Shown: positions 2,414 to 40,694 of the stretch, piece by piece
How positions within the stretch are numbered: position 1 is the stretch's first letter
Layout: each line of letters opens with the position of its first letter
Source of the DNA: an uncultured virus (IMG/VR IMGVR_UViG_2049941000_000903)
Lineage: Duplodnaviria > Heunggongvirae > Uroviricota > Caudoviricetes
DNA: 40,775 bases
Virus record (IMG/VR): IMGVR_UViG_2049941000_000903
Direction: 5' to 3' (one strand)
Translations under genes and position numbers: made by a program
The notes under the pieces: model-generated
What the model was told of the DNA's origin: nothing
The model's database searches: none
Seen by the model: only the letters and a program-made list of their open reading frames with translations

Positions 2414-2495
2414 AACTGATAGGGTGCGTGGTATGTGGATTACCCNNNNNNNNNNACGGTTGCTTCTATGAGATTAAAGCAGAGGAGGATGAGAA

Positions 2496-2639
2496 ATGAA
2501 ATCAAACGAACTGACTTGGGAGGATATAATGACCATTGATATTATTATCCATAACTTACCAGAAGGCAACCACTCTATTAAGGGTTTTTACACGGAAGTG
2601 TTGCGAAGATTTAACGAAGCAAAGGAGGAGAAAAAATGA
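2496..2639 (+). CDS. Small hypothetical protein (47 aa, MKSNELTWEDI...EAKEEKK)
   Basis: Read manually. ATGA overlaps at both ends. Confidence 0.65.
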   Translation: MKSNELTWEDIMTIDIIIHNLPEGNHSIKGFYTEVLRRFNEAKEEKK

Positions 2640-2767
2640 TAGAACGAATTTGTACATCCAACCCCATTATTATTGAGTTGGTACAGAAGATTAACGAACT
2701 CACCGACCAAGTAAACACACCCACCGCCGACGTGCAGATGCTACTTCAAAAGGAGGAACAGAAATGA
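2636..2767 (+). CDS. Small hypothetical protein (43 aa, MIERICTSNP...QKEEQK)
   Basis: Read manually. ATGA overlaps at both ends. Confidence 0.6.
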   Translation: MIERICTSNPIIIELVQKINELTDQVNTPTADVQMLLQKEEQK

Positions 2768-2865
2768 TGTGGGAATACGTCGGCACACTGCTATTCGGAG
2801 TGATAGCGTTCGTGCTTGGATATAAGTTCGGAAGATTAAAGAAACAAAGAGATGACCGCACTTGA
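2764..2865 (+). CDS. Small single-pass membrane peptide MMWEYVGTLLFGVIAF, copy 1
   Basis: Hydrophobic helix plus basic tail. Near-identical copies at 35181 and 40590. Confidence 0.7.
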   Translation: MMWEYVGTLLFGVIAFVLGYKFGRLKKQRDDRT

Positions 2866-3451
2866 CATAGTGGACATATACATCGCCACACTCGGACTGA
2901 AAAGACTCAAGGGCGAAAGGGCATCACCCATACTCCCCTTCTTCATCCTTGACGCGATGTACGACATCCTTACCAAAGACATAGCACCCGTGCCCGTAAA
3001 GGGAATCACCAAGAAGGCTCTCAACGAGTGGATGCACAACTACGGACTGTTCAACCGTTCGTTCTTCCGTGCTTTCACCCAAGACCAACAAGACGAAGTG
3101 ATAGACATTATGGATGCCTTCGAGAAGCATATCGGAAACGACTTGACCGTGACGAAGGTTGCCGTGATGAACCAACTCGCCAAGCACGGCATAGAGTTCG
3201 AGGGGCAGAAAATCCTCGCATCGGCGGTGGTCGCAAACATATTGGCACAACAGGCGGGCATCATTTGGGAAGAGGTGTTCAAGAAATCCAACCGTTACTT
3301 GTCCGCGATAGAGTTGCACTCGAAGCGGTGGATGCAGGGCTATTTCCTGCAACACTTCCCAGGGCACGTCAACCCCAATGACGACGAGAGCATCTGCCTC
3401 GCCGTTGACATCCTATGTAAGAAGATAATCCATTTCCTTGACAAGATATGA
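2852..3451 (+). CDS. Hypothetical protein, 199 aa
   Basis: Clean ORF in an operon with overlapping neighbours. Confidence 0.8.
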   Translation: MTALDIVDIYIATLGLKRLKGERASPILPFFILDAMYDILTKDIAPVPVKGITKKALNEWMHNYGLFNRSFFRAFTQDQQDEVIDIMDAFEKHIGNDLTVTKVAVMNQLAKHGIEFEGQKILASAVVANILAQQAGIIWEEVFKKSNRYLSAIELHSKRWMQGYFLQHFPGHVNPNDDESICLAVDILCKKIIHFLDKI

Positions 3452-4008
3452 AAAAGTACCTACCAATCATCCTCGGACTCCTGACGGGACTGCTAATCTA
3501 CGGGGCATACCACAAGGGTTACAAGAAGGGCATTTCCAAAGCCGTAGAGACGATTATAACGCAAATTGACACCGTTGTAAGGGTGGACACGATAACCGCC
3601 GTAAAACCCGTCTATTTGACGCAAAGGGTGGTTGACTCCATACCTTACTACATCCACGTTGCCGACACCATCTCCGTGCTTGCGTACTTGCCACGGACGG
3701 AACGAACCTACAAGGATTCGGCATACTTTGTACGCATCGCAGGGGTAGAGCCGACCTTGGAAGAAATATCCGTCTATCAAAAGACCAACTACATCCACGA
3801 GGTTACTTACATACCGCAAGAGGACACGCGAAAAGAGTTCGTAGAGCTTGATGCAAAGTTCCTGTGGGACAAAGTACCGACCGCACCCGTAACGCTCAAT
3901 ATAGGGCATTTCTATGGCCCTCTCGCGGTATATGCAGGAGGTGGATACGATTTCTTGCAACGGAGTCCGATTGTCCAAGTGGGAACGAGAGTACAGTTCA
4001 AATTTTAA
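3448..4008 (+). CDS. Membrane-anchored protein, candidate spanin-like lysis accessory
   Basis: N-terminal TM helix, DT-rich spacer (DTVVRVDTI) and amphipathic C-terminal beta-strands ending VQFKF. Confidence 0.55.
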   Translation: MKKYLPIILGLLTGLLIYGAYHKGYKKGISKAVETIITQIDTVVRVDTITAVKPVYLTQRVVDSIPYYIHVADTISVLAYLPRTERTYKDSAYFVRIAGVEPTLEEISVYQKTNYIHEVTYIPQEDTRKEFVELDAKFLWDKVPTAPVTLNIGHFYGPLAVYAGGGYDFLQRSPIVQVGTRVQFKF

Positions 4009-4034
4009 CCTTCCAAAAGTTATCAACAAAGTTG

Positions 4035-4042
4035 TATCTTTG
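4035..4042 (+). promoter_or_regulatory. Bacteroidetes -7 promoter box for the HNH-recombinase unit
   Basis: TATCTTTG in an intergenic region, followed by a stem (AGAGCAGGA 4076-4084 / TCCTGCTCT 4131-4139). Confidence 0.5.
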
Positions 4043-4173
4043 TTGTGAAATCTTGCGATTATGTTGTAACTTTATAGAGCAGGATAGTTGTGGTCGGCCA
4101 CCACGACAACAAAGGTAAGCCATTAGCCCTTCCTGCTCTTCTTTTTAATGGCACAACATAAAATAATGGCAAG

Positions 4174-4731
4174 ATGGAAGAAATCTGGAAGCCAGTCCCT
4201 ATTGACGGACTGTGCAAAAGGTACGAGGTGTCCAACCTCGGAAGAATCAGGAGGCTCCCGTATGCGGTGGTCTCACACAATCAACACGGAGAACACATCC
4301 GTAATCTCCCTTTAAGGATTCTCAAACTACACAAGCAAGAGAAGGGCTATGTGACATTCGGCGTAACCCTGCCGTCCGGGAAGTTTAAGGTTTATCGTGT
4401 ACATCGCCTTGTAGCGATGGCCTTCATTCCTAATCCCAAAAATCTCCCACATATCGACCACATTGATGCGGTAAGAGACAATAATGTTGTCTCCAACCTT
4501 CAATGGTGCACGATGCTTGAGAATAACCGAAACCCCATCACAAGAGCAAGGCGGAGCGAAACCTTGAAAGTTGTTACCGTAGGAAGGAAACACTCCGAGG
4601 AAACGAAGCGAAAGATTGCACAAAGCAGATTGGGTCGCAAAATGCCCCAATGGGTAAAGGATAAGATAAGCGCATCCAAAAGGGGTAAGCATAATCCGTT
4701 GAAGCGGACAATAAACAGAGAGGAGGAATAG
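4174..4731 (+). CDS. NUMOD4-HNH homing endonuclease with NUMOD3-like tail
   Basis: EIWKPV...YEVSNLGRIR (NUMOD4), VHRLVAMAFIPNP...IDHIDAVRDNNVVSNLQW (HNH), GRKHSEETKRKI (NUMOD3). Confidence 0.92.
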   Translation: MEEIWKPVPIDGLCKRYEVSNLGRIRRLPYAVVSHNQHGEHIRNLPLRILKLHKQEKGYVTFGVTLPSGKFKVYRVHRLVAMAFIPNPKNLPHIDHIDAVRDNNVVSNLQWCTMLENNRNPITRARRSETLKVVTVGRKHSEETKRKIAQSRLGRKMPQWVKDKISASKRGKHNPLKRTINREEE

Positions 4732-4733
4732 TT

Positions 4734-5735
4734 ATGGAAGCACATAAGCTCAATTTCAATACATCGGAGAATATCGCTGGTTTTAGGGCATACCTTGAAC
4801 ATTCACTCCGCGACCCGTTCACCCTTAATCTCAAGGACTGTACGCTCATAGAGGTCATACGCGCTTGCACGAAGGCAAAGTCCACCATAAGGCCAAAGTA
4901 TGCCGAGGGGACTCAATCGCTTATCTACAACTTGGAACTCTTGCAGTCACAATACCACATCGTCCTCTATCCCGTGCAAGTGACGGATGTATTTTGGGGA
5001 TATTTCATCGCCTTTCTACAAGACCGTGGGCTTCGTGCCACATCCATCGCAACGCTCTGCTCCAAGCTGCGCTCTGTCCTTAATTGGGCGGTAAAGTACA
5101 ATGCTACTGTCTCCCCTACTTATTCGGACATTCTTATTCCTTCAACACGCCACCAAGGAGTAGCACTAACCGCCGACGAGGTTAGTAGGATAACATACTT
5201 TGATGTGGAGAGGTTCTATCGTGGAAGGCGTAGCGATTTCCGTGACACAATGAATAATATCCGAAACTTGTTCGTGCTGTCTTGCAACCTGGGGCAACGC
5301 TACTCCGACTGCGTTCGCATAGAGCCTACTTGTTTCGAGAGAAATATCTTCAGCATTGTCCAACAAAAGACAGGAAACAGAGCAGTTGTCAATATTGATA
5401 AACTCGCCATAGAGCCGAAAACAACTTATCGTATCTTGGAGCAATACGGATATAATGCCCCATTCAAGGGTACTATCGGCAACTATAATTTCTACCTCCA
5501 TCAGTTGATGAAAGACATCGGTCTTACCGATATGGTACGAGAGGAGGAAAAGATAGGAGGCAAGATTGTGACTCGCGTTGTTCCAAAGTACGAAAGGATT
5601 TCGAGCCACGTTGGAAGAAGGTCGTTCGTCAGCATAAATGTACTTCGCGGGCGGAACATAATGGATATACGAAGAGCAACGGCACACACGGATACACGAG
5701 CCTTCCAAGGCTATGTTGTTGACTTGGAAAACTAA
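4734..5735 (+). CDS. Tyrosine site-specific recombinase (Bacteroidetes type, no obvious arm-binding domain)
   Basis: Catalytic signatures GQRYSD, QQKTG, SSHVGRRSF and AHT...FQGY. SAM-like core-binding region upstream. Confidence 0.88.
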   Translation: MEAHKLNFNTSENIAGFRAYLEHSLRDPFTLNLKDCTLIEVIRACTKAKSTIRPKYAEGTQSLIYNLELLQSQYHIVLYPVQVTDVFWGYFIAFLQDRGLRATSIATLCSKLRSVLNWAVKYNATVSPTYSDILIPSTRHQGVALTADEVSRITYFDVERFYRGRRSDFRDTMNNIRNLFVLSCNLGQRYSDCVRIEPTCFERNIFSIVQQKTGNRAVVNIDKLAIEPKTTYRILEQYGYNAPFKGTIGNYNFYLHQLMKDIGLTDMVREEEKIGGKIVTRVVPKYERISSHVGRRSFVSINVLRGRNIMDIRRATAHTDTRAFQGYVVDLEN

Positions 5736-21925: not shown

Positions 21926-21935
21926 NNNNNNNNNN

Positions 21936-24041: not shown

Positions 24042-24440
24042 ATGGACTTCGTGGTTCACGATAATGCTGAAAGGGAGGTTATTAGGGATTACATATCCCG
24101 CCTCCCCGAAGGCAAAACCTACGATGTGAGCATCAAACTCCATCGTGCAAAGAGAAGTACGGAGGCCAACGCGTTGTACTGGAAGTGGATAGGCATCATA
24201 GCATCGGAAACGGGGAACGAACGCGAGGTCTGCCACAAGTTCTTCGCAAAGAAGTTCCTCGGCTATGACACCAAGGAGTTCGGAAACGAAAAGATTGCGA
24301 TAGTCAAGTCCACGGCAACGCTTGATACGGCGCAGTTCGCCGAGTATATGAACCAAGTGGAGGCTTTCGCTTCCACGGAACTCGGCATCGTACTGCCCAC
24401 CCCCAATGACCAACTTTATTCAATGATGTCCTATGAGTGA
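24042..24440 (+). CDS. NinB-like recombination protein
   Basis: KRSTEANALYW, KSTATLDTAQFAEYM and LGIVLPTP motifs. Confidence 0.7.
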   Translation: MDFVVHDNAEREVIRDYISRLPEGKTYDVSIKLHRAKRSTEANALYWKWIGIIASETGNEREVCHKFFAKKFLGYDTKEFGNEKIAIVKSTATLDTAQFAEYMNQVEAFASTELGIVLPTPNDQLYSMMSYE

Positions 24441-26894: not shown

Positions 26895-27159
26895 AGGCAG
26901 GAAAGGTTACATATAATCTTCATGATGTCTTGTACAGATATACCGGCATCGAGCTTGACAAGTCGTTCCAGAAGGATATAGCCAGTAAGGGACTCACTCC
27001 CGAAGGAATACGCTATGCCGCAAACGACGTCGTGCATCTTCAAGATATACGGAGGTCACAGATGCTCATAGCAAAAGACAGGGACTGTTTGAATGCCTTT
27101 ACGGTTGAGAACAGATTCGTACCGGCTATAGCTTATCTTGAGTGGTGCGGTATCAAACT
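26895..27159 (+). CDS. polA: Family A DNA polymerase, middle fragment (overlaps about 22190-22334 as an allele)
   Basis: YAANDVVHL and ENRFVPAIAYLEWCGIK. Confidence 0.85.
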
Positions 27160-27169
27160 NNNNNNNNNN

Positions 27170-28424
27170 CGTTGACTGGAACAGTCCAAAACAGGTTGTA
27201 CCGGTTCTGCAGAAACTGGGTTTCGATACCAAGACAAAGGATAAGAAGACCAAGAAAGAGAAAGACTCCGCTCTTGAAAAACTTATCGCCACCCAGAAAG
27301 GAATAGCTGATGATTTCCTGGATATATACTTCAAGTATAAGGAGGCTTCAAAATGTGTGTCGTCTTACGGACAAGGTCATCTCAACCAGATTAATCCCAA
27401 TACCGGAAGATTGCACACGGTGTTCAGGCAATTCGGGACCGTAACTGGTAGGATGTCCTCAGGAGAGAGCAAGAGCTTCAACAGGGACCTTGCAAAACTC
27501 AAAGGACTTCCTGATAGCGACGTGTCTTACTGCAATCTCCAGAATCTTCCCAAGGATGCGGAGACCAGAGGGTGCTTTGTAGCGGAGGATAACAATGTCT
27601 TCGTATCCGTCGACTATGCTGCAGAGGAATCCCGTGTCCAAGCTGATGTGTGGAACGAGAAAACTTTGCTTGACTCATTCGCCAACGGCATAGATACCCA
27701 TAACCTCTATGCCAAACTTTGTTTTCCTGACGAACTCAAGGATGTTGATGTCCGTGATGTTAAGAAGCTCAGACCAGACCTGAGGCAGAAAGCAAAGTCT
27801 GCAGAATTTGCTGTCGGATACGGTTCTGACGGAACTTCTATCGCCACATCAATAGGCCTTCCTGTGGACAAGGCAAGGGCTATGGTAACTGGTATACTCA
27901 AAGGTATGCCAGGCATGGCAAAGTTCAAGAAACAGGCTGGAAAGTTCCTTAAGGAGCATGGATATATAGTCATTAACAAACAAACCGGGCATCGTATATA
28001 CTGGCCAGAATGGGCTTATTGGAAGGCCACTGAGGACAGGTTCGACAGGAAGTTCTGGGATGATTATAAGCTTTACCATAAAGGCACTGATGACGAAGTT
28101 GCCCAGATGGTCAGAAAGCACATCTCCATGGGGCACGACTGGTTCGAGAAGAACGTGCTGAACTATCCCATACAGGGGGGCAGTGCAATAGTAATGAAAC
28201 AGGCAGCGGCGGATCTGTTCGAATGGGTTGTCAAGAATAATCTGTTCGGCAGGGTTCTGTTCTGTGTGTTTGTACATGATGAGCTTGACTGCGAGTGCCC
28301 AAAAGAATTGGCTGAGTCTTTCTCCAAAGTTGTTCAAAACATAATGGAGAAAGCAGCGGCAAAGTATTACAAAAGGTTACCAATACCAGCAGACTGCGAA
28401 GTCAGTTCACACTGGGTACATTAA
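27170..28424 (+). CDS. polA: Family A DNA polymerase, polymerase domain (crAss-like)
   Basis: WNSPKQV, TGRMSS, NLQNLP, motif A DYAAEESR, motif B RQKAKSAEFAVGYG, NYPIQG, motif C VHDE. Confidence 0.95.
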
Positions 28425-28427: not shown

Positions 28428-28501
28428 AATCTGCAGGGGAAGGACCAGTTAGAAGTTAAACAGTCATAGTGTTGAGAGTATATTTCCTTCCCTTGCGGAT
28501 T
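28428..28501 (+). ncRNA. Intergenic long-stem RNA element (copy A)
   Basis: ATCTGCAGGGGAAGGA pairs with TCCTTCCCTTGCGGAT using G-U pairs. 28468-28517 is identical to 31076-31125. Confidence 0.55.
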
Positions 28502-28581
28502 TTTAACGGATAGATTANNNNNNNNNNTGGAGGAGACATAGGTATATCCACTACATCTGGAACTTGTAAAAAGGATTAATT

Positions 28582-28703
28582 ATGAGTTTCTGTATTAAAA
28601 AGTACAAAATAGTATATGATGGTAACGATGGTTATACTTACGAAAAATCAATCTATGCTAAGTTTGAAAATGTCTGGGACGGTCAACTATGGGTAAATGA
28701 AGA
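28582..28703 (+). CDS. Hypothetical protein (3' truncated)
   Basis: Follows an allele of the end of gene 32506..32940. Confidence 0.5.
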
Positions 28704-30237: not shown

Positions 30238-30717
30238 ATGGAACAAGAAGTCAAGAACATCGTCGTCGGGATTGATCCGGGCGAAAAAGGTGGCCTCGCG
30301 GTCCTGCGCGGAGCACAACTCCTTACCTACAAGATGCCGACCACGTACCCCGACATCTTCAGTCTCCTGTCCGGCATCAAGGCCGCATACTCCCCCGCCA
30401 ACATCACTTGCGTAATGGAGCGTGTTGGTACGGGAATCCCCGGCCAATCGTCAAAAGCCACCGCCACCTTCGCACGGCACTGCGGACACCTTGAGATGGC
30501 TCTCTACGCACTCGGCATACCTACCGAGGAGGTCACACCGCAGAAATGGCAGAAGGCGTACTCAAACTCCATCGGCACGGCTAAAGGACTTACCAAAACC
30601 GAATGGAAGAACAAACTCAAAGGGCTTGCACAAAGGCTCTATCCAACGGAGAAAGTCACACTTAACACCGCAGATGCGATACTATTGGCGCACTACGGAA
30701 AAATGAATAACCTATGA
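30238..30717 (+). CDS. ruvC: RuvC-like Holliday junction resolvase
   Basis: VGIDPGEKGGLA, VMERV, VTPQKWQK and ADAILLAHYG. Confidence 0.85.
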   Translation: MEQEVKNIVVGIDPGEKGGLAVLRGAQLLTYKMPTTYPDIFSLLSGIKAAYSPANITCVMERVGTGIPGQSSKATATFARHCGHLEMALYALGIPTEEVTPQKWQKAYSNSIGTAKGLTKTEWKNKLKGLAQRLYPTEKVTLNTADAILLAHYGKMNNL

Positions 30718-31047: not shown

Positions 31048-31109
31048 AATCCGTGGGGGAAGGTTATTAGTAATAAGTGTTGAGAGTATATTTCCTTCCC
31101 TTGCGGATT
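31048..31109 (+). ncRNA. Intergenic long-stem RNA element (copy B)
   Basis: AATCCGTGGGGGAAGG pairs with CCTTCCCTTGCGGATT (16 bp, three G-U pairs). Confidence 0.55.
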
Positions 31110-31124
31110 TTTAACGGATAGATT

Positions 31125-31985
31125 ATGACAAGAGAAGAAGCAGTTGCGTTGCTTGAACGCTATTCAAATTACGATGGAATGGGCATCCCCAATCTTGCTG
31201 GATGCAAAGAGGCTATGAAGGTAGCTGTTGAGTCGTTAAAGGAGGTATACCCCGAACTCCGCGAGAGCGAGGACGAGAGGATAAGGAAAGAGATGGTAGA
31301 GAAGATTAGCAACTTGGCTTGTGGTTGTTTTATATCGCAAGAACAAAAGCAAAAATTCATCGCCTACCTCGAAAAGCAGAAAGAGCCTCATTACACCAAG
31401 AGGAATGCACTCTTTGACAAGTGCGTGGCAGAATGTGACCCAGAGATTATGCAAAGAGTTTCTGACGAGATAGATGAGATGTTGGAGAAAGAGCAGAAGC
31501 CAACCTCCACGGAAGATATGCCATATATCACTGATGAGCATTTCTATGAAAGGGAGCCAGTCGATTCCTTCAAATACAAACTTGCGGAGTATATGACAAA
31601 GTGCTGCACCAAGAAGGAAGGCCCATACGGATATGAATATGGCATTAGCGCTGAAACCATCTTGAAAATGGCAGAAGAAGAACTACTCAAGAGGGGTGTT
31701 GTTCAGAAGCCAGCAGAGTGGAGCGATGAGGATGAGGATATGCTAAACTCTTGTATTTCCTCAATCGAAGAGGCGAAAGAGAACCGATATGCCTATAAAG
31801 AAACGGATGGAGACACCTCGTATGACCACGAAATTGACTGGCTCAAATCCCTCCGCCCTTCTTGGAAGCCGAGCGAGGAGCAGAAAGAGGCGTTGGAGTA
31901 TGTAATCCGTGACTACCGCGAGGATAGTTGCAACGCCACCGCCAACTACTTACAAGAAATCCTTGACCACTTAAAGAATATGTAA
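31125..31985 (+). CDS. Modular protein, ESEDERIRKE / KPAEWSEED / WKPSEEQ family, 286 aa
   Basis: Conserved linker motifs shared at DNA level with 32943..33998. Confidence 0.85.
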   Translation: MTREEAVALLERYSNYDGMGIPNLAGCKEAMKVAVESLKEVYPELRESEDERIRKEMVEKISNLACGCFISQEQKQKFIAYLEKQKEPHYTKRNALFDKCVAECDPEIMQRVSDEIDEMLEKEQKPTSTEDMPYITDEHFYEREPVDSFKYKLAEYMTKCCTKKEGPYGYEYGISAETILKMAEEELLKRGVVQKPAEWSDEDEDMLNSCISSIEEAKENRYAYKETDGDTSYDHEIDWLKSLRPSWKPSEEQKEALEYVIRDYREDSCNATANYLQEILDHLKNM

Positions 31986-31989: not shown

Positions 31990-32057
31990 AGGGCGTGGTG
32001 GATGGTAGTATCGTATTACTTTGGAGGTGGGACGATGCTATGTAGGTAACGCACCCT
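31990..32057 (+). ncRNA. Intergenic stem element (copy C)
   Basis: Outer stem AGGGCGT / ACGCACCCT plus inner TAGTATCGT / ACGATGCTA hairpin. Confidence 0.45.
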
Positions 32058-32075
32058 TTTTAACTTGATTTAGAT

Positions 32076-32231
32076 ATGGACAAGATAGAGAAGATACGCC
32101 AAGAGATTGAAAGGCGAAAACAAAGCCTTCGAGCGGCGCGCCAAACCGAAGAGGGAATGTGTGCGAGTTTTATTGGGAGGAACAGAGATGACACTTGGAA
32201 AATTGATATGGGAGAATCTTTCCCAGCTTGA
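32076..32231 (+). CDS. Small hypothetical protein MDKIEKIR (51 aa)
   Basis: Same start as 34105..34551, then unrelated. Confidence 0.5.
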   Translation: MDKIEKIRQEIERRKQSLRAARQTEEGMCASFIGRNRDDTWKIDMGESFPA

Positions 32232-32361
32232 CAAGGAAGACTATGAGGTTGTATCGGCAACAATAGTATTAAAAGACTATAACAGTGGGAAAATCAATTC
32301 TTACGGCGTTGACCAATTCGGTTGCTTCTATGAGATTAAAGCAGAGGAGGAAGAGAAATGA
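32188..32361 (+). CDS. Small hypothetical protein (MTLGKLIW...KAEEEEK)
   Basis: An allele of its 3' end occurs at 2457-2499. ATGA overlap with the next gene. Confidence 0.65.
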   Translation: MTLGKLIWENLSQLDKEDYEVVSATIVLKDYNSGKINSYGVDQFGCFYEIKAEEEEK

Positions 32362-34003: not shown

Positions 34004-34086
34004 AGGGTGGGAAAGCAATCTGTAAATATATGGAAAATTGATAGCAATCTTGTGATGCTCAGGAATACCAATGACTTTTCCACCCT
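34004..34086 (+). ncRNA. Intergenic stem element (copy D)
   Basis: AGGGTGGGAAAG pairs with CTTTTCCACCCT (12 bp). Followed by the same TTTTAACTTGATTTAGATATG as copy C. Confidence 0.5.
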
Positions 34087-34104
34087 TTTTAACTTGATTT
34101 AGAT

Positions 34105-34551
34105 ATGGACAAGATAGAGAAGATAAGATGGTTTGTTAAAGAACTGCAACAAGACTTCATTTCGATTCATCCAAAGGATTGCTCGTTGAAACTCGTCAAG
34201 TCATACGCAGGGTATGCCTATTTGGACAAGGTACTTTCCTTCCTTGACACCCTCTCGGAAGAACCCGACAAGAGTCTGGAGGAAGTAGCATATAAATACT
34301 CGTTTGATAGCAGATCATCCATATATGGACAAGTAGATGTCATTGATGCCTTCAAAGCAGGAGCAGAGTGGCAGAAGGAGCAGATGCTCAAGATAGTTAC
34401 GAAGGATGATAATCTGGAAGAAGCAGGGACACAGTATGTTGAAACCTATTTCCGTGATATTGAGTGGACTCCTGATGTTATCAAGTCGTGTTTAGAAGAA
34501 GCCTTTATCTCTGGAGGAGAATATGTTTTTAAGCAAATTAAATATGAGTAG
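34105..34551 (+). CDS. Hypothetical modular protein (LEExA...AFxxGxE repeats)
   Basis: Two internal repeats: LEEVA...AFKAGAEW and LEEAG...AFISGGEY. Confidence 0.75.
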   Translation: MDKIEKIRWFVKELQQDFISIHPKDCSLKLVKSYAGYAYLDKVLSFLDTLSEEPDKSLEEVAYKYSFDSRSSIYGQVDVIDAFKAGAEWQKEQMLKIVTKDDNLEEAGTQYVETYFRDIEWTPDVIKSCLEEAFISGGEYVFKQIKYE

Positions 34552-34810
34552 AATTGAGGAATCAATATCCAAGTTAAAAAAATTCAAGTATCACGCAATA
34601 GGAAGGCTTGAACTTGAAGATGCTATTGATAATGTGGTATCGTGGTATGGACAGATGCTCAAGGATGCGGTGGAAGGAGAAGTTTATGATTATGGTGGTG
34701 GCTCCTTTGGGCTTATTGCACGTTGGCTTGATATGCCAAATGAACCTGTTTTCAAGGGTGGAGAAAAGGTCCGCATAGTTGTGCTTAAAGCAGCGGAGGA
34801 AGAGAAATGA
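34544..34810 (+). CDS. Hypothetical protein (QMLKDAVEGEV...KAAEEEK)
   Basis: Shares CAGATGCTCAAG with the preceding gene and ends in the AEEEK linker. Confidence 0.7.
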   Translation: MSRIEESISKLKKFKYHAIGRLELEDAIDNVVSWYGQMLKDAVEGEVYDYGGGSFGLIARWLDMPNEPVFKGGEKVRIVVLKAAEEEK

Positions 34811-35184
34811 AATTCGGAGAACTTAAAAATCTGAACTACCCCGATTGTATGGAGGTGGAACAAGTGCTTGCTGATTTGTTTTACAATGGACAAGTGAGCT
34901 TTTTGAGTGCTGCGGTGGCATATTCCAATTCGCTTGAGAGAGACAGGCACGATAAGGAAAGTCTGTTCAATGAAGCCGCTTGTGTCATTACGATGGCATT
35001 GAGTGGTAATTGGAAAGGCAAGTACAAGGAGCAGCTCGTCAAACGGGCAATTCACATTCTTAATCTCAACAAGACATTTCCTTCAAATATCTACAATGAC
35101 CAGTACGGATATACCAGCGAAGATAAGAAGGAGTGGGACGAGTTTATGAAAATGCACTATGATTATCAAGAGAAGGAGAAATGA
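34807..35184 (+). CDS. Hypothetical protein, 125 aa
   Basis: ATGA overlaps at both ends. Confidence 0.75.
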   Translation: MKFGELKNLNYPDCMEVEQVLADLFYNGQVSFLSAAVAYSNSLERDRHDKESLFNEAACVITMALSGNWKGKYKEQLVKRAIHILNLNKTFPSNIYNDQYGYTSEDKKEWDEFMKMHYDYQEKEK

Positions 35185-35285
35185 TGTGGGAATACGTCGG
35201 CACACTGCTATTCGGAGTGATAGCGTTCTGGCTTGGATATAAGTTCGGAAGATTAAAGAAACAAAGAGATGATGAGGATAGATAA
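35181..35285 (+). CDS. Small membrane peptide MMWEYVGTLL, copy 2
   Basis: Near-identical to 2764..2865. Confidence 0.7.
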   Translation: MMWEYVGTLLFGVIAFWLGYKFGRLKKQRDDEDR

Positions 35286-35511: not shown

Positions 35512-35516
35512 CTGGT

Positions 35517-35903
35517 ATGACCAAGGAACAGATTCTTATAGAGCTTAAAAAGTTGTCCCTGGAGGATAAGTTCTCCGTGCTGGCAACCCTGTCCCGTATT
35601 GCCGGGTTAGAGGAGAAAGATAACCAGTTGGACATACTTGTGAACCATCATATAGATTTAATGAAGCAACTGTCTGGGGACGACTTTCTAACCGGTAGAA
35701 CAAGAAAGAACAGTCAGGCAAGAATGGTTGTAGCAAGATGTCTCCAAGAAGCAGGACTTAACTTGTCACACGTTGGACGTATACTTGGATATGACCATTC
35801 CACCATTTCCCATTACAATAAATTGTGGGAAGATGCGCTGTCTTTACCAGTTGCTTACAAAGACGTACTTAAATTATACACAACTTATAAATCAATGCTA
35901 TGA
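35517..35903 (+). CDS. DnaA C-terminal-like HTH protein, paralogue of 29436..29849
   Basis: QARMVVARCL...LSHVGRILGYDHSTISHY. Confidence 0.7.
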   Translation: MTKEQILIELKKLSLEDKFSVLATLSRIAGLEEKDNQLDILVNHHIDLMKQLSGDDFLTGRTRKNSQARMVVARCLQEAGLNLSHVGRILGYDHSTISHYNKLWEDALSLPVAYKDVLKLYTTYKSML

Positions 35904-36364
35904 CGATAATTGGAATTGATCCAGGAGAGAAGGGAGGTATAGCAATACTGTATCAAACCGATGGGCTTATCAACACCTTCAATATGCCGGAAACCTATCC
36001 GGACATTTATAATCTGCTGAAGAACATCAAGCTCACATCCTCACATGGCGTAAAGTGTTATCTTGAGGACGTGGGTAAAGGCGTTCCTGGTCAGTCATCT
36101 TCTGCAACTGCCAAGTTTGCGAGGCACAACGGACATCTCGAGATGGCTCTTTATGCTCTTGGGATACAGACGGAGAAAGTCACACCGCAAAAGTGGCAGA
36201 AGTTCTATTCCAATCAGGTCGGGAAGTCAACTGGTCTAAGCAAGACGGAGTGGAAGAATAAACTCAAGGGGCTTGCACAAGCCCTATATCCTACGGAGAA
36301 GATTACGCTCAGCACTGCTGATGCAGTCTTAATAGCACATTACGGTAAAAAACAGGAAGTATGA
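35900..36364 (+). CDS. ruvC: RuvC-like Holliday junction resolvase
   Basis: IGIDPGEKGGIA, YLEDV, VTPQKWQK and ADAVLIAHYG. Confidence 0.85.
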   Translation: MTIIGIDPGEKGGIAILYQTDGLINTFNMPETYPDIYNLLKNIKLTSSHGVKCYLEDVGKGVPGQSSSATAKFARHNGHLEMALYALGIQTEKVTPQKWQKFYSNQVGKSTGLSKTEWKNKLKGLAQALYPTEKITLSTADAVLIAHYGKKQEV

Positions 36365-36625: not shown

Positions 36626-37384
36626 ATGGAATGGAAGATAATTGATGGATATCCATTATACAAAATTAATAATATCGGGCAAGTAAAGAGTATCTGGTTT
36701 AATAAAGAAAAAATTATTAAACCGATTATAGGTCACGGGTATTACTACGTAAATCTTCATAATAATAATGGGACTAAAAGATTCGCGGTTCATAGATTAG
36801 TAGCAAATGCCTTCATTAGTAACCCTTACAACAAATTATATGTAGATCACATTGACGGTAATAAAAGTAATAATGCCGCAACAAATTTAAGATGGGTTAC
36901 TGCAAAAGAAAATTCAAATAATCCAATTTCTCTTGATAGAATGAGAAAGAATCTTGTCGGGCACTATGCTGGTTTGGGAAGATATGGTAAAAAACATCCG
37001 CTTGCGAAGCCGGTGGACAGAATTGACATATATGGGAATATAAAATCATATGAATGTATAGAAGAAGCTGCAAGAGATGGGTTCGAGAAAAACAGCATAA
37101 GCAAATGTTGTCGAAAACTATTAAAATCTTATAAAGGGTACATATGGAGATTCGCAGGTGATGACGACAGGGATTTATCTATATTACATAAAGAACTTGC
37201 AAAGCGTGATTGGCCAGTATGGAGAAAAGATATAGATGGTACAATAACTTATTATGAACACGTATCAGATGCCATAAAGCAGTATGGGTTATCAAAAAAG
37301 CATATATATCAATGCTGTAAAAGCCCATATAAAAGGCATTATAATGGGTTTGTCCATTGGTCCTTTATTCCATTTAGTGCATAA
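36626..37384 (+). CDS. NUMOD4-HNH homing endonuclease with NUMOD1-like repeats
   Basis: EWKIIDGYPLYKINNIGQV, VHRLVANAF, VDHIDGNKSNN and ISKCCRK...YKGYIW. Markedly AT-rich. Confidence 0.92.
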   Translation: MEWKIIDGYPLYKINNIGQVKSIWFNKEKIIKPIIGHGYYYVNLHNNNGTKRFAVHRLVANAFISNPYNKLYVDHIDGNKSNNAATNLRWVTAKENSNNPISLDRMRKNLVGHYAGLGRYGKKHPLAKPVDRIDIYGNIKSYECIEEAARDGFEKNSISKCCRKLLKSYKGYIWRFAGDDDRDLSILHKELAKRDWPVWRKDIDGTITYYEHVSDAIKQYGLSKKHIYQCCKSPYKRHYNGFVHWSFIPFSA

Positions 37385-38769
37385 TTTATTACCATTCTGT
37401 TTGCACGATCCACCTTTGACTGGTCATACCTGATGTATATCATGGTAGTACGGTTATTCATGGAATGACCAAGAGCCTGTGATATAACATCTATAGGTAT
37501 CCCAATCTGGTAGGCGAAGGTGGCCCACGAATGTCTGGCGAAATATGTGGTTATCCCTGGAATGACAGGCTCTACCTCCTCACGTTCCTCCCCGAAGATT
37601 TCATCCTGCCTCTTGACAACTGGTCCAATCTTCTGGCAGGCTTCGTTGATGGCCCTTGCAAACGACTTGTGATGCTTGCAGTGATCCATTGCTTCGAGCA
37701 GGTAATCCTTGCCTCTATACTTGTCAAGCAGCGCTTGTGCTTCCGGCTCAATCCTGATGGAGTATTTCTTATGCGTCTTGTTCCTTATGTATTCTAACCT
37801 GCCATCAACTATCTGACCATGCTTGGCAAGAAGAAGGTCCTTAATATTGATTCCGATAAGGAGAAAGGNNNNNNNNNNGTCCATTGCTTCGAGCAGATGC
37901 GTCTCACCGGCATACTTGTCAAGAAGCACTTGAGCCTCCGGTTCAATCCTGATGGAGTATTTCTTATGTGTTTTGTTCCTTATATACTCTAACCTTCCAT
38001 CCACTATCTGACTATGCTTGGCAAGAAGAAGGTCCTTAATATTGATTCCGATAAGGAGAAAGGACAGGAGAAAGTAATCCCTGTACTTACCATTGATTAC
38101 GTCTGTGGGAAATTCCACGAAGGCACGGAAATCTTCCACACTTACGCTTCTTTTCCTCGTAGGCTCCGTCTTGAACTTGAAGCCATCGAAAGGATTAACA
38201 GATACTATGTGTGTCTTAAAAGAATAGTGGCAAATCGCCCTTACGCATCGAAAGTAGATTGCTCTTCCATTTGGACCTTGAGTTCTGGCAAGGAATTTCT
38301 CAAATCCGAAAAGCCATTTAAGATTTACACTCTCTATCTTAAGACTTTCCCCTCCGTAAGAAAGCATTTTCTTAAGCGCACACTTGTAAACCTCACGCGT
38401 TCCGTCCTTCATTGGCTTGGACATATACTCTTCAAAGATGTCATTAACCAGATGTCCTTTGTTAGTGTCTGGAGAGGACGACATGATTCTTACCTTTATC
38501 TCGGCAGCGGTCAGGGTCTCAAAATAGTTTTCAAGAGAGAGTAGCGCAATGCTCTTGTCTATCTTGCTCTTCTGTTCTATGAGTTTTATGTTGAGGGCGG
38601 AGTAGGTTGAGGATAGTTTTATCTTTCTTCCGTCCCAGTCATCCGGAGAAAGACGTATGCCGGTAGATATAGAGGCGCTGGTCCTGTTATGGATAATCAT
38701 AATAAGAACAGTCCCCTTACCGTCCTTAGCCTTGGAACGGAGGTCAAGATATAGTTTGGTGGTAGTCAT
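37339..38769 (-). CDS. int: Phage integrase (tyrosine recombinase with arm-binding domain); about 60 codons duplicated across the gap
   Basis: N-terminal YLDLR.KAKDGK...ISTGIRL...WD arm domain. GINIKDL, RNKT, YFARHSWAT, LGHS and TMIY catalytic motifs. Confidence 0.92.
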   Translation of the reverse strand: MTTTKLYLDLRSKAKDGKGTVLIMIIHNRTSASISTGIRLSPDDWDGRKIKLSSTYSALNIKLIEQKSKIDKSIALLSLENYFETLTAAEIKVRIMSSSPDTNKGHLVNDIFEEYMSKPMKDGTREVYKCALKKMLSYGGESLKIESVNLKWLFGFEKFLARTQGPNGRAIYFRCVRAICHYSFKTHIVSVNPFDGFKFKTEPTRKRSVSVEDFRAFVEFPTDVINGKYRDYFLLSFLLIGINIKDLLLAKHSQIVDGRLEYIRNKTHKKYSIRIEPEAQVLLDKYAGETHLLEAMDXXXXFLLIGINIKDLLLAKHGQIVDGRLEYIRNKTHKKYSIRIEPEAQALLDKYRGKDYLLEAMDHCKHHKSFARAINEACQKIGPVVKRQDEIFGEEREEVEPVIPGITTYFARHSWATFAYQIGIPIDVISQALGHSMNNRTTMIYIRYDQSKVDRANRMVINYALNGIKDQWTNPL

Positions 38770-38927: not shown

Positions 38928-38979
38928 TGCTCCCTTAGGGGCTCGAACCCTAGACACCCTGATTAAGAGTCAGGTGCTC
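38928..38979 (-). tRNA. 3' fragment of tRNA-Lys(CTT), attP core; not a complete tRNA gene
   Basis: GAGC A CCTGA CT CTT AA TCAGG GTGTC TAGGG TTCGAGC CCCTA AGGGAGC A. The 5' acceptor strand and D loop are absent. Confidence 0.88.
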
Positions 38980-39056
38980 ATGATTTATAATAACTTAATA
39001 ATCAAATAACTATAAAGGCAATACTAGTTGCCTGCAAACATTTCTGCAAATTTTGT

Positions 39057-39542
39057 ATGAATTATGATTTGAGAAATAAGGAAGACCGCAAGAGATTCCT
39101 AAGGTATGCCAATATGCTGATGAGACAGCAGAGGTCTAACGTGAAGGTTGTTGATGAGTCAAACAGGACTCTTAACCAGAACAGTTATGCCCATGTCCTC
39201 ATTAGGATTGTAGCGGCATATACAGGAGAAACGGAGTACTATGCCAAGCAGGTGTACTTCAAAGCTCTTGCAAATCCTGGTATCTTCTTCGTTGTAACAA
39301 AGGATTCTGCTACCGGCAAGATTATGAAGATGGTCAGGAGCACAGCCGATCTCAGTATAGATGAGATGAGAAAAGCCATTTCAAACTTTCACTGGTGGGT
39401 ACTTCAGACATTCGATGGACAACTGGTGCTCCCGGAAGCAACGATAGAAGACGACGGAACTGTAACATTCCGCTCCGAAGCAGAGAAGGAAGGTCTTGCA
39501 AAGGCTGATATAGAAGCGTCGAAGGCAGAAATATATATGTGA
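39057..39542 (+). CDS. NinB-like protein
   Basis: RTLNQNSYAHVL, RSTADLSIDEMRKAI and LVLPEA motifs. Confidence 0.65.
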   Translation: MNYDLRNKEDRKRFLRYANMLMRQQRSNVKVVDESNRTLNQNSYAHVLIRIVAAYTGETEYYAKQVYFKALANPGIFFVVTKDSATGKIMKMVRSTADLSIDEMRKAISNFHWWVLQTFDGQLVLPEATIEDDGTVTFRSEAEKEGLAKADIEASKAEIYM

Positions 39543-39543: not shown

Positions 39544-39705
39544 ATGACACAGAGAGAAAAGAACAAAATAAAAAGAGACATCAGGAATCTCCTGGAAGAC
39601 TCTTACGAAGATGACTGCAATTCCTACGAACTTGAGTTCCGTGACATGCTCGAGAACATTTTGGACAAGTGGGAAGAGATAACATCAGTACATCAGAGGA
39701 AATAG
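39544..39705 (+). CDS. Small hypothetical protein (53 aa)
   Basis: Read manually; followed by a hairpin. Confidence 0.6.
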   Translation: MTQREKNKIKRDIRNLLEDSYEDDCNSYELEFRDMLENILDKWEEITSVHQRK

Positions 39706-39706
39706 A

Positions 39707-39740
39707 TAAGGGGTAACCATCACGGCTACCCCTTACTCTT
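39707..39740 (+). terminator. Putative terminator hairpin
   Basis: TAAGGGGTA...TACCCCTTA followed by CTCTT. Confidence 0.55.
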
Positions 39741-39802
39741 AACACATTAATCTTACACTTATGAATAAAGCTTCCTCCTCGCTACTAAGGTATGTATTAT
39801 TA

Positions 39803-39832
39803 TTGCATATTAAACATTAATAAGTATCTTTG
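39803..39832 (+). promoter_or_regulatory. Bacteroidetes promoter
   Basis: TTG at 39803 and TATCTTTG at 39825-39832. Confidence 0.6.
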
Positions 39833-39860
39833 TTAGTAACACATTATAAAAACACTGACT

Positions 39861-40046
39861 ATGGATAAGGATAAACGTTCTCTGACAATATTTGTTATAA
39901 TACTTGTTGCCCTTCTTATAATAAACCTCAACTACATCATTGAGTTCATTCAGGAAAGAGGCTGGGTTGCAGTACTTATACTCTTCGTAATTGTTCCAGT
40001 TCTGATTCTCATATTCAAATGGCTAAAGAGTGACAACATAATCTAG
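39861..40046 (+). CDS. Two-TM small membrane protein with its own promoter (moron-like)
   Basis: Two hydrophobic helices, AT-rich. Confidence 0.7.
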   Translation: MDKDKRSLTIFVIILVALLIINLNYIIEFIQERGWVAVLILFVIVPVLILIFKWLKSDNII

Positions 40047-40408
40047 CGATTGTTGTTCCTGTAGAAACTAATCAATGATGACGGGTCTTTGAACCTTTGT
40101 ACGTGCTTTGCCATTGATATTATAGGCAGGTTCCAGAAATACTTGTACGCCTTGCTGTGCCCTTTGTAGGGGCCACGTGTGACTTCTTCCATATAAGTAC
40201 CTGGCCACAACAACTTGAGTCCGTTAATGGCATCTCGTATTGGCTCAATAGCTGCGAATGGTGACTCGAGGATATTAAGACCTTCCTTTATCATAAGACC
40301 TGGCATTGTTACAGACTGTGAACCTAACTCATTTCGCAATCTATACAACTGGTACAGTGACATCTGTTCTGCCCAAGACAAGAGCTTATTCTTGTCCTTG
40401 TCGTCATC
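40043..40408 (-). CDS. C-terminus of a probable giant crAss-like ejection/cargo protein
   Basis: DDDKDK...WAEQMSLYQLYRLRNELG...EGLNILESPFAA...GPYKGHSKAYK...FY resembles, from memory, the C-terminus of Crassvirales large ejection proteins. The frame is open to the gap. Confidence 0.65.
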   Translation of the reverse strand, partial: DDDKDKNKLLSWAEQMSLYQLYRLRNELGSQSVTMPGLMIKEGLNILESPFAAIEPIRDAINGLKLLWPGTYMEEVTRGPYKGHSKAYKYFWNLPIISMAKHVQRFKDPSSLISFYRNNNR

Positions 40409-40418
40409 NNNNNNNNNN

Positions 40419-40593
40419 AAAATGTGGGTTCTATTTCACTTGCGTAAACCAAGCAGGAGTCGCACAATGCGTTGGACTACAATATTTCGATACGAATCTA
40501 ATGAAGTGGAGAGACTTTGATGAAGAGGTCAGGGAAGTATTTATTGACTACTGGATGGAGATACCAAAACTACCAAAGGAGGAGGAACAATGA
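40419..40593 (+). CDS. Hypothetical protein, C-terminal fragment ending KEEEQ
   Basis: DYWMEIPKLP ending and ATGA overlap. Confidence 0.6.
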
Positions 40594-40694
40594 TGTGGGA
40601 ATATGTAGGAACGTTGTTCGCGTGTGTGATAGCGTTCTGGCTTGGATTCAAGTTTGGAAGATTAAAGAAACAAAGAGATGATGAGAATAGATAA
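40590..40694 (+). CDS. Small membrane peptide MMWEYVGTL, copy 3
   Basis: Variant of the copies at 2764 and 35181. Confidence 0.7.
   Translation: MMWEYVGTLFACVIAFWLGFKFGRLKKQRDDENR

Follow-up and report, generated by a model that had tools for sequence, protein, structure and literature searches.

The small-gene arrays in this window (the whole stretch of DNA analysed, 40,775 nucleotides) are probably the product of a mis-scaffolded mix of related phages combined with classical mosaicism at gene boundaries. The arrays would then represent a fresh example of the known gene-boundary mosaicism of phages.

We examined the make-up of the scaffold. The window contains 20 N runs (19 of 10 N and one of 573 N), which divide it into 21 pieces, and in ten of the 20 repeat pairs the end lies within 0–1 nt of the edge of a piece or of the end of the window. 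Positions 2457–40694 therefore do not form a continuous array of a single genome. The N runs and the repeat pairs that end at piece edges had been overlooked in the earlier sequence-only reading of this DNA. In addition, two genes are split between distant parts of the scaffold:

1885..2232, + strand: N-terminal part of an exonuclease gene, interrupted by a gap; its final 31 residues overlap with the beginning of 19789–20559
19789..20559, + strand: C-terminal part of the exonuclease gene, 17.5 kb from the N-terminal part in the scaffold
21571..22334, + strand: N-terminal part of polA with the 3'-5' exonuclease domain; about 40 residues at its end overlap with piece 15 (from 26897)
26897..28424, + strand: continuation of polA in pieces 15–16 with the DNA_pol_A domain; 4.56 kb of other pieces lie between the polA parts

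Logan contigs leaving positions 28715 and 40408 run into sequence unlike the adjoining piece; the contig from 40408 extends 204 nt further and does not resemble piece 21, which follows piece 20 in the scaffold. The integrase, HNH, RuvC-like and NinB genes each occur twice, and no capsid or terminase gene was recognised in the window. These results indicate that the window is a metagenomic scaffold in which related temperate phages of Bacteroidales from the rumen or gut, at least two and probably three of them, are interleaved. Its content is the early, replication and recombination regions of these phages. The pieces were putatively assigned to haplotypes A and B, as judged from overlaps and GC content. 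The depth per Logan contig was 47–66x and alike across pieces 16, 18, 19 and 20, which carry different haplotype assignments; similar depth is also compatible with one genome, and two prophages in one host strain fit it equally well.

The gene junctions were then compared with shuffled sequence. The four earlier sequence observations (purine-rich linkers, gene ends shared by different next genes, changing neighbours of the MMWEYVGT gene, and a 45-nt junction) are all present and above chance. The seven purine-rich linkers with an ATGA overlap are found at their claimed coordinates and are listed below with one further SD and ATGA start:

2470..2499, + strand: linker at the gene end '...FYEIKAEEDEK*', followed by MKSNEL; SD core and ATGA, 15 nt after the N gap 2446–2455
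2617..2639, + strand: linker AAGGAGGAG...ATGA between a 47-aa gene and a 43-aa gene
2747..2767, + strand: linker AAGGAGGAAC...ATGA, upstream of MMWEYVGT copy 1
32176..32191, + strand: SD and ATGA at the start (32188) of a 57-aa gene; a 51-aa MDKIEKI ORF overlaps out of frame
32333..32361, + strand: linker followed by MTLADL, 25/26 identical to 34785–34810
34785..34810, + strand: linker between the end of a 95-aa gene and a 125-aa gene
35167..35184, + strand: linker AAGGAGAAATGA, upstream of MMWEYVGT copy 2; homology to the relative L001 stops exactly here
40573..40593, + strand: linker AAGGAGGAGGAACAATGA, upstream of MMWEYVGT copy 3

An SD core followed after 3–10 nt by ATGA occurs at 20 distinct + strand sites, compared with 4.8 ± 2.2 (maximum 10) in 200 shuffles, and eight of these sites are true ORF/ORF junctions. 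An overlap of 4 nt is present in ten pairs of consecutive + strand genes. SD cores precede 7 of 20 ATGA-type starts versus 4 of 41 other starts (P = 0.03); 50 of the 61 starts have none. The linkers measure 15–26 nt and lie within coding sequence. The "KAEEEK" peptides are simply the SD and ATGA motif read in the frame of the upstream gene, and the linkers are ribosome-site and stop/start overlap junctions, ordinary in kind. Judging from this arrangement, translation would be coupled at the junctions. Among 241 million metagenome records, a 24-nt linker turned up three times, always at an '...EEK*' gene end; the three contexts are unrelated, and its origin is therefore convergent. Apart from the generic SD and ATGA core, just one linker sequence is shared, and the window has it in two independent contexts. 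Similarity between the 57-aa and 95-aa genes is slight (E = 0.003), yet their last 26 nt are identical at 25 positions.

Repeats also occur at other gene borders:

28468..28517, + strand: 50-nt leader repeat copy 1, downstream of the polA end; stops at an N gap
28529..28584, + strand: gene end '...GTCKKD*' and next start MSFCIK; N gap 1 nt before
31076..31125, + strand: 50-nt leader repeat copy 2, upstream of a 286-aa gene; 100% identical to copy 1
32052..32096, + strand: 45-nt junction copy 1, consisting of a 24-nt leader and the MDKIEKI codons
32890..32945, + strand: gene end '...GTCKKD*' and next start MDKYEK, 91% identical to 28529–28584
34081..34125, + strand: 45-nt junction copy 2, 100% identical to copy 1

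The claim that one gene end leads to different next genes is borne out by two pairs, 2457–2499 with 32319–32361 (98% identity; MKSNEL versus MTLADL) and 28529–28584 with 32890–32945 (91%; MSFCIK versus MDKYEK). For the copies at 2457 and 28529, an N gap ends 1 nt before the start, which leaves the genes upstream of them unseen. The 45-nt junction is likewise real, and the two genes that it starts share their first 8 residues only. The exact repeats span 43–54 nt. A 286-aa and a 351-aa gene form a paralogue pair, each followed by the 45-nt junction in a partly colinear order; most of the small genes showed no detectable paralogy. Furthermore, a Logan contig links 31127 to 32491, and the ATG is then in frame with a piece-19 gene.

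A gene found beside changing neighbours is MMWEYVGT, a small membrane-type gene of 34 aa:

2764..2865, + strand: copy 1, piece 5; a 43-aa gene upstream, a 199-aa gene downstream
35181..35285, + strand: copy 2, piece 19; a 125-aa gene upstream, an 80-aa gene downstream
40590..40694, + strand: copy 3, piece 21 (357 nt); 89% identical to copy 2

The three copies have three different upstream and two different downstream neighbours, as had been proposed. Counted from the ATG, identity between the copies in pieces 5 and 19 is about 98% between positions -6 and +92; the flanks on either side are unrelated. Logan contigs reproduce both piece-5 flanks, as loose ends at 35177 and 35272. Homology begins and ends at gene starts, indicating that single genes such as MMWEYVGT act as cassettes.

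We measured the distance from homology ends to gene starts for the 11 ends not cut by piece edges, a small and hand-curated set. The median distance was 6 nt versus 128 nt at random, and 10 of the 11 ends fell within 25 nt of a gene start (P = 5.7e-9). L001, an independent gap-free contig from another data set, loses its homology to the 125-aa gene at the ATGA of window position 35184 and continues past it with a different, 30-aa membrane-type gene. In the X5 contigs, which come from another study, homology stops at 31125 (a gene start) and at 34791 (within a linker). L001 and L002 are the only relatives that share any small-gene family, and for this reason no broad adjacency graph was obtained. 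Of the cassette exchange at linkers put forward earlier, one part is supported: whole small genes were traded between related phages, homology stopping at gene starts or linkers. The other part, a dedicated integron-like system, is not supported, as the linkers are SD and ATGA junctions that fold no better than shuffles and the recombinases are of phage type. The reordering of a single array, moreover, was read from a scaffold that demonstrably mixes at least two genomes.

The recombination genes and associated elements are as follows:

4734..5735, + strand: tyrosine integrase copy A, with an HNH endonuclease upstream at 4174–4731
24042..24440 and 39057..39542: NinB/Orf (phrog_72), two copies
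30238..30717, + strand: RuvC-like Holliday junction resolvase copy A (phrog_1770)
35900..36364, + strand: RuvC-like resolvase copy B (phrog_1770), 67% aa identity to copy A
37339..38769, - strand: tyrosine integrase copy B, Arm-DNA-bind_5 and SAM_5; 65-codon duplication across the gap 37869–37878
38929..38980, - strand: tRNA 3'-half-like att core adjoining integrase B; depth about 60-fold versus flanks, many contexts

The duplication in integrase B is artefactual; a Logan joint from 37683 to 37879 leaves out its 195 nt. The segment 38929–38980 resembles a tRNA-derived att core in our own reading, and ARAGORN found no full tRNA there. The window also encodes an exonuclease, and polA, primase/helicase and SSB genes lie near the NinB and resolvase genes. 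In phage lambda, the nin region is a series of small, closely set genes whose starts and stops overlap. It is situated among replication and recombination genes, contains NinB/Orf and a Holliday junction resolvase, and is highly mosaic between relatives. The window has the same tight run of small genes with NinB/Orf and a junction resolvase beside replication and recombination genes, but it differs from nin in host phylum and gene families, and here HNH and integrase genes follow the array. It may thus be called nin-like by analogy of layout, NinB (phrog_72) being the one gene with family-level support.

On these grounds, we propose that each phage carries a nin-like run of small genes, head to tail, in which many junctions are an ATGA overlap preceded by an SD-like purine-rich stretch. 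With this stretch inside the K/E-rich 3' end of the upstream gene, the junctions would serve as (re)initiation regions for translation of the downstream gene. Most probably through ordinary phage mosaicism, related phages would recombine illegitimately or at short borders that they share (the 26-nt linker, the 45-nt leader and the 50-nt leader); of the resulting joints, selection would retain only those at gene borders. A module of exonuclease, SSB, NinB and RuvC-like protein, encoded by the phages themselves, probably assists. The sequence itself shows the border sequences, their enrichment, the breakpoints at gene starts and the mis-scaffolding, and from these we infer the translational coupling, the crossover places and the acting enzymes.

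Integron cassette arrays are series of promoterless small genes that gain and lose cassettes. Their attC sites, imperfect inverted repeats at cassette borders, form single-strand hairpins, and an IntI-type integrase with attI and a Pc promoter next to it stands at the head. The arrays here resemble them in their promoterless small genes in series and in cassette-like gain and loss, but lack attC hairpins and appear to lack attI and an integron-type integrase context. In single-stranded DNA folding of the seven linkers and both leader repeats, z ranged from -1.48 to +0.93 (200 shuffles each), with no attC-like hairpin. By PHROGs and Pfam family models, the only tyrosine recombinases are the two integrases, with matches to phage integrase PHROGs and to the Pfam domains Arm-DNA-bind_5 and SAM_5; they stand at the end of the arrays and not at the head, and integrase B adjoins the tRNA-like att core. 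Terminator-like sites between 28300 and 36700 numbered 6, against 6.2 ± 2.2 in shuffles, with none at a linker. Promoter-like sites numbered 22 against 14.1 ± 4.5 in shuffles, and one at 28457–28484 overlaps the 50-nt leader; the promoter scan used an E. coli consensus unsuited to Bacteroidales.

The mosaic joints can also be compared with boundary sequences. Susskind and Botstein, and Clark et al. in 2001, reportedly set out the idea of modular evolution with boundary linkers at mosaic joints of lambdoid and other tailed phages. Here, border sequences common to otherwise unrelated genes are present (the 26-nt linker, the 45- and 50-nt leaders and MMWEYVGT), and breakpoints lie at gene borders. 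As with phage boundary linkers, short border sequences have unrelated flanks, homology blocks are gene-bounded and whole genes are replaced. The present case differs in its uncultured Bacteroidales phages and its SD and ATGA junctions with 45–50-nt leaders, and it is known from a mixed scaffold and one relative rather than from complete genomes. Boundary sequences and illegitimate recombination near gene boundaries are both discussed for phages in PMC3029335. An example there, a gene that carries at its C-terminus a copy of the last 18 residues of the neighbour upstream, is much like the shared gene ends seen here.

The PeSLs of T4-type phages, as PMC2839356 describes them, are about 100 bp long with a strong sigma-70 promoter and a terminator stem-loop, and crossovers between the SD and the -10 box were shown experimentally. 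They resemble the present borders in that they recur, have an SD and a start codon at their end and flank small ORFan genes in a plastic region; a role as sites of recombination in gene shuffling has been proposed for them (PMC2839356 and PMC4122927). In contrast, the linkers here are 15–26 nt long, lie in coding sequence and have no stem-loop or clear promoter; the genes here would be coupled in translation, whereas PeSL genes are transcribed separately. In the strong form of the earlier proposal, which is conceivable but unlikely, the phage recombination module would cross over by preference at the SD and ATGA linkers and the 45- and 50-nt leaders, like PeSLs without promoter or stem-loop, and so add, remove and rearrange cassettes of a single gene. 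Such targeted shuffling would account for near-identity islands (25/26 in the linker, 100% in the leaders) exactly at the borders of nearly unrelated or unrelated genes, for breakpoints concentrated at gene starts and for the exonuclease, SSB, NinB/Orf and RuvC-like proteins encoded in the window, and it has a precedent in the PeSL crossovers. Yet the one shared linker has two independent contexts, the same 24-mer recurs in unrelated contigs, the linkers are far from the size of PeSLs, and selection acting on random joints predicts the same breakpoint pattern. In a fuller version, which we regard as doubtful, these sites would let co-resident Bacteroidales prophages trade cassettes via the exonuclease, NinB and RuvC-like proteins, and the SD-like cores would serve termination-reinitiation. 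If true, the linkers would amount to pared-down equivalents of T4 PeSLs set within coding sequence, and the anti-SD would be usable on terminating ribosomes in a bacterial class considered SD-blind.

Two other explanations concern the scaffold itself. That it is one real genome, in which the repeats are diverged tandem or segmental duplications within a single phage or prophage, appears very improbable. The similar depth of pieces 16, 18, 19 and 20, the partly colinear 286-aa and 351-aa pair with its 45-nt junction, and the weak similarity of the 57-aa and 95-aa genes would all suit it; a single genome would, however, have its essential-type exonuclease and polA genes broken by kilobases with overlapping ends at gaps, an integrase duplication missing from an independent assembly, and doubled integrase, resolvase, NinB and HNH genes with no capsid or terminase gene recognised, and most small genes show no detectable paralogy. 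We consider it extremely unlikely that the alternative adjacencies are nothing but chimeric joins at short repeats, with no biological mosaicism. Although the scaffold order is demonstrably wrong, half of the repeat pairs adjoin gaps and exact repeats of 43–54 nt can mislead short-read assemblers, each repeat has at least two different flanks per side in contiguous sequence under any phasing. Moreover, Logan's independent assembly recovers both piece-5 flanks of MMWEYVGT, the gap-free L001 has its gene-exact boundary in another data set, and the X5 contigs of another study lose homology at a gene start and inside a linker.

Concerning translation signals, Huber et al. 2019 (PMC6728339) describe ATGA overlaps whose SD lies at the 3' end of the gene upstream, and coupling through termination-reinitiation at them. 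The junctions here are of the same form. In the same paper, under about 10% of overlapping pairs in Bacteroidetes are reported with an SD, the one group hardly using it, compared with 7/20 here. As SDs are rare at Bacteroidetes overlaps, the reading of the translation signals is insecure for this host. The L001 orthologues keep the purine-rich ends, and their SD cores are weaker or absent. It is an oddity that SD-type junctions occur in phages whose hosts are reported as not using SD. A Bacteroidales host is supported by the 50 of 61 starts without an SD core, by the closest RuvC loci, which belong to Bacteroidaceae, Prevotella and Bacteroides, and by polA, which shares 46.5% identity with its counterpart in a Bacteroides crAss-like phage.

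The window contains 20 runs of N within its 40,775 bases, 19 of them exactly 10 N long and the twentieth 573 N long (22335-22907), and is therefore a scaffold of 21 pieces of 108 to 11,228 bases. Self-comparison of the pieces gave 20 repeat pairs, of which 10 had an end no more than 1 nt away from the edge of a piece or the end of the window. The sequence-only reading had reported that the same gene end leads to different next genes. These alternative adjacencies are real at their coordinates, although two of the gene ends cited for them, 2457-2499 and 28529-28584, abut gaps, each beginning 1 nt past one. PHROG and Pfam scans pointed to a temperate phage early region together with a tail/lysis region, and no capsid or terminase gene was recognised in the window by these scans.

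Genes recognised in the window by PHROG and Pfam scans
Plus strand: exonuclease, SSB, NinB/Orf, family A DNA polymerase, primase/helicase fragment, RuvC-like resolvase, HNH endonucleases and integrases
5831 to 19619, minus strand: endolysin, spanin-like gene and large tail-type proteins
4734-5735 and 37339-38769: two integrases
4174-4731 and 36626-37384: two HNH endonucleases
30238-30717 and 35900-36364: two resolvases, 67% identical to each other in protein sequence
24042-24440 and 39057-39542: two NinB genes

Three independent observations show that the order of the scaffold does not follow that of a genome. Gaps interrupt the exonuclease gene, its N-terminal 116 codons ending at 2232 and its C-terminal 256 codons starting at 19789; 31 residues (92 nt at 97%) are common to both parts, although 17.5 kb separates them. 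The DNA polymerase gene (polA) is likewise gap-cut: piece 11, at its end (22334), has about 40 residues (144 nt at 96%) in common with the beginning of piece 15 (26897), and 4.56 kb of intervening pieces separates the two. Finally, the integrase ORF at 37339-38769 carries a 184-nt segment repeated across the gap 37869-37878 with 88% identity and a period of 195 nt (65 codons). Logan contigs served as an independent assembly. The best-covering runs were X1 and X3, from one bovine gut sample, possibly that from which the window came; runs X5 and X7, from other studies, covered only parts of the window at low depth, and the parts they left uncovered were taken as no evidence. One Logan contig joined 37683 straight to 37879, omitting exactly the 195-nt integrase period. 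A 3,117-nt contig over 28715-30483 extended 1,348 nt leftward into sequence unlike 26895-28714, and another left 40408 for a further 204 nt unlike piece 21.

Judging from the overlaps and GC content, we infer two interleaved haplotypes, a lower-GC one made up of pieces 3, 10, 11, 15, 16, 19 and 20 and a higher-GC one made up of pieces 5-9, 12-13 and 18, with piece 21, at 89% identity to piece 19, as a B-like third variant. The per-contig depth was 47-66x and alike across both haplotype sets, consistent with a pair of prophages in a single host strain or with equally abundant phages. Similar depths are by themselves also compatible with a single molecule. The sequence-only reading had described small-gene arrays over 2457-40694. 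The split exonuclease, the split polA and the integrase duplication show that this span is a mixed scaffold.

Two further regions deserve a remark. On the minus strand, 13811-18959 holds three gap-separated tail-type ORFs that are paralogous and have repeats in common, such as 15445-15510 and 16191-16256 (91%), which encode Gly-X-Y-like stretches. Since several of these repeats abut N gaps, the region is probably collapsed or mis-scaffolded too. The N-terminus of the polA ORF (21571-21840) gave weak aspartyl-protease matches ahead of the 3'-5' exonuclease domain (RVP, E = 4e-4, scoring 21.0 bits where the cut-off is 20.7; Asp_protease_2, scoring 21.7 bits where it is 24.3), an unusual pairing if real.

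The small-gene linkers described earlier at seven sites were all confirmed by inspection. Each is purine-rich, with a Shine-Dalgarno (SD) core (AGGAGG, GGAGG or AAGGAG) 5-9 nt ahead of an ATG whose ATGA also gives the upstream gene its TGA stop.

SD-bearing ATGA junctions in the window
2496, 2636, 2764, 32358, 34807, 35181 and 40590

Because GAG-GAG-G reads Glu-Glu in the upstream frame, the "(K)AEEEK" peptides are an automatic result of SD plus ATGA. The arrangement exceeds chance: an SD core followed after 3-10 nt by ATGA occurred at 20 distinct plus-strand sites, compared with 4.8 +/- 2.2 (maximum 10) in 200 shuffles, and eight of these sites are junctions of two ORFs of at least 25 codons each. 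We considered whether the linkers merely reflect an SD present at every gene. This was ruled out, since of the 61 gene starts no more than 11 had an SD core of at least 5 nt; among control ATGs the figure was 53 of 701. The core was found at 7/20 ATGA-type starts versus 4/41 other starts (Fisher P = 0.03). A 24-nt linker searched with two positions free had no match in IMG/VR and three among 241 million metagenome records. All three were a gene end '...EEK*' followed by ATGA and had nothing else in common with the window; these unrelated contexts indicate independent origins of the motif rather than a mobile element or one common to the lineage.

We collected all ends of homology blocks (at least 83% identity) that lie between otherwise unrelated flanks and are uncut by piece edges; gap-abutting ends and gene-internal repeats were left out. 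The set, small and curated by hand, comprised 11 breakpoints, nine inside the window and two against L001 (12.4 kb without gaps, from an IMG/VR contig of 23 kb). The median distance from a breakpoint to the nearest gene start was 6 nt, compared with 128 nt when every position of those regions is counted. Six of the 11 lay within 6 nt of a gene start, eight within 12 nt and 10 within 25 nt (binomial P 3e-7 to 6e-9). DNA homology between L001 and the window ended exactly at the ATGA corresponding to 35184. These borders bear out the proposal that whole genes are exchanged. In contigs of X5, similarity to the window broke off at 31125, where a gene starts, and at 34791, within a linker; we regard this as anecdotal, since these positions depend on the 90% identity cut-off.

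The small gene beginning MMWEYVGT behaves like a cassette. It occurs in three copies of 33-34 aa with a hydrophobic core and a basic tail, and the sequence-only account of its changing neighbours held.

Neighbours of the MMWEYVGT gene
Upstream: 43-aa gene; 125-aa gene; '...LPKEEEQ*' gene
Downstream: 199-aa gene or 80-aa gene

Between pieces 5 and 19, the identity was about 98% from 6 nt before the ATG to 92 nt after it and fell to noise level on both sides, so that the flanks are unrelated; the 3' end of the block (+92) falls on the ATGA with which the next gene begins. Copies 2 and 3 differ by 5, 2 and 9 substitutions at codon positions 1, 2 and 3, a pattern compatible with a coding gene. Both piece-5 flanks were recovered in Logan contigs, as loose ends at 35177 and 35272. 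An exact scan of IMG/VR for the gene start gave 0 matches.

Longer identical sequences were also found at gene starts. As the sequence-only reading had noted, a 45-nt junction starts two unrelated genes: 32052-32096 and 34081-34125 are 100% identical over a 24-nt leader and seven codons, and the products have only 'MDKIEKIR' in common. The junction had 0 matches in an exact scan of IMG/VR. A 50-nt leader missing from that reading, 28468-28517, is 100% identical to 31076-31125. In piece 18 it lies ahead of the 286-aa gene, and in a Logan contig joining 31127 to 32491 its ATG is in frame with the Cys-rich gene that opens piece 19. A motif common to the 45-nt and 50-nt repeats, 'TTTTTAAC...GAT...AGAT...ATG', was sought with up to 3 mismatches, and only the two 45-nt copies were returned.

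At gene ends, one pair stands out: the 57-aa gene has little similarity to the 95-aa gene (E = 0.003 over 20 residues), but 25 of their last 26 nt are identical, a true conservation island at a gene boundary. Common ends would also be explained if the small genes were diverged tandem paralogues. The paralogy signal was weak and confined to this one pair. The 57-aa and 47-aa genes gave no BLASTP alignment and M1 was the sole invariant residue in a nine-sequence alignment of small genes, leaving tandem paralogy unsupported for most of them.

The 51-aa MDKIEKI ORF (32076-32231) extends 44 nt beyond the SD-led start of the 57-aa gene (32188-32361), with the usual ATGA stop out of frame, and looks like a degenerate coupling junction. 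Logan variants of this region joined 32115 to 34363, and 34776 back to 32137. The family of 286-, 351- and 321-aa products (window 31125-31985 and 32943-33998; L001 3224-4189) has internal short repeats with motifs such as KPAEWSEEDE and WKPSEEQ, and had no Pfam or PHROG match. Logan contigs contained many joints internal to it (for example 31289 to 33729, 31300 to 33196 and 33123 to 33489), also in a run from another study. It looks like a modular protein that is highly variable within the population.

Megablast of 28714-37868 and 2456-13683 against GenBank phages found no close relative, and tblastn of the 351-aa protein against the same set found no match. L001 carries an array of the same kind, in which the 286/351-aa family, the MKSNEL gene (there ending '...FNKSKEAKK*') and the 125-aa gene (at 85% aa identity) all have homologues. 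In L001, the MMWEYVGT slot after the 125-aa gene is occupied at 6363-6455 by a different 30-aa single-helix, membrane-type protein (MSNYLLWAIYFF...), a positional replacement by an analogous small membrane-type protein. Among 12 IMG/VR loci and five genome loci, only L001 and L002 had a small-gene family in common with the window, L002 having RuvC and the MKSNEL family. Nine of the ten loci L003-L012 had RuvC alone in common with it, L003 having RuvC and the HNH family; the five genome loci compared (L016-L020, of 19) had only RuvC, HNH or integrase.

Homology boundaries that coincide exactly with genes are the classical mark of phage mosaicism, and the present finding is a further example of it. 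The linkers most likely act as translation (re)initiation regions of the downstream gene and lie within the end, rich in K and E, of the gene before it. Translational coupling by way of an ATGA overlap with the SD in the upstream 3' end is well documented (PMC6728339). Whole genes may be exchanged through shared boundary sequences or through illegitimate recombination; the present data fit either route, and the full recombination module of these phages could assist both. Among the junctions, the 26-nt linker and the two leaders (45 and 50 nt) qualify as candidate boundary sequences, but most have only the generic SD+ATGA core in common. Gene exchange here works like the lambdoid boundary-sequence model, and the layout resembles the lambda nin region. 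PeSLs of T4-type phages are described as ~100-bp elements with a strong promoter and a stem-loop (PMC2839356), whereas none of the seven linkers and two leader repeats folded better than shuffled sequences (z -1.48 to +0.93), which argues against a PeSL system. A dedicated integron-like system, as proposed earlier, is not supported, in view of the lack of attC-like hairpins among these linkers and leaders, the phage-type integrases and the independent origin of the linker motif. The window provides a clean, quantified case of mosaic joints placed exactly at genes, with conserved boundary sequences, in uncultured temperate phages of rumen/gut Bacteroidales, of which few genomes have been studied. 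It also calls for caution, as repeats in an N-gapped scaffold can make co-assembled phages pass for one self-shuffling array.

The nearest RuvC-bearing genomes were a Bacteroidaceae MAG (64%), Prevotella, Bacteroides and Paludibacteraceae; polA had 46.5% identity to its counterpart in a crAss-like phage of Bacteroides cellulosilyticus, and the integrase domains were Arm-DNA-bind_5 and SAM_5. Together with the mostly SD-less genes, these features fit a Bacteroidales host. Bacteroidia ribosomes are reported to be blind to the SD (PMC7797042, PMC9976891, PMC13000453), and in Bacteroidetes genomes the SD is reported at under ~10% of overlapping gene pairs (PMC6728339). Given this low reported use, the seven SD-bearing ATGA junctions in the window and five in L016, the closest genomic relative (a Bacteroidaceae MAG), exceed the expectation for such a host. 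The other 16 of the 17 related loci had 0-2 SD+ATGA ORF junctions. L001 orthologues at the junctions kept the purine-rich ends, with SD cores weaker or absent (GGAGG core lost). A narrow full-text literature search found no description of SD-bearing ATGA junctions in Bacteroidales phages. The concentration of strong SD-like motifs at ATGA overlaps is the only feature that could open a new question.

Beside the integrase at 37339-38769, about 50 nt on the minus strand (38929-38980) resemble, in our own interpretation, a tRNA 3' half comprising T-arm and anticodon arm; ARAGORN found no complete tRNA there. The summed depth of this segment was about 60-fold that of its flanks (3,666 versus about 55 in X1), and many distinct sequences flanked it on the left in each of the four runs. 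The segment is probably the attP core.
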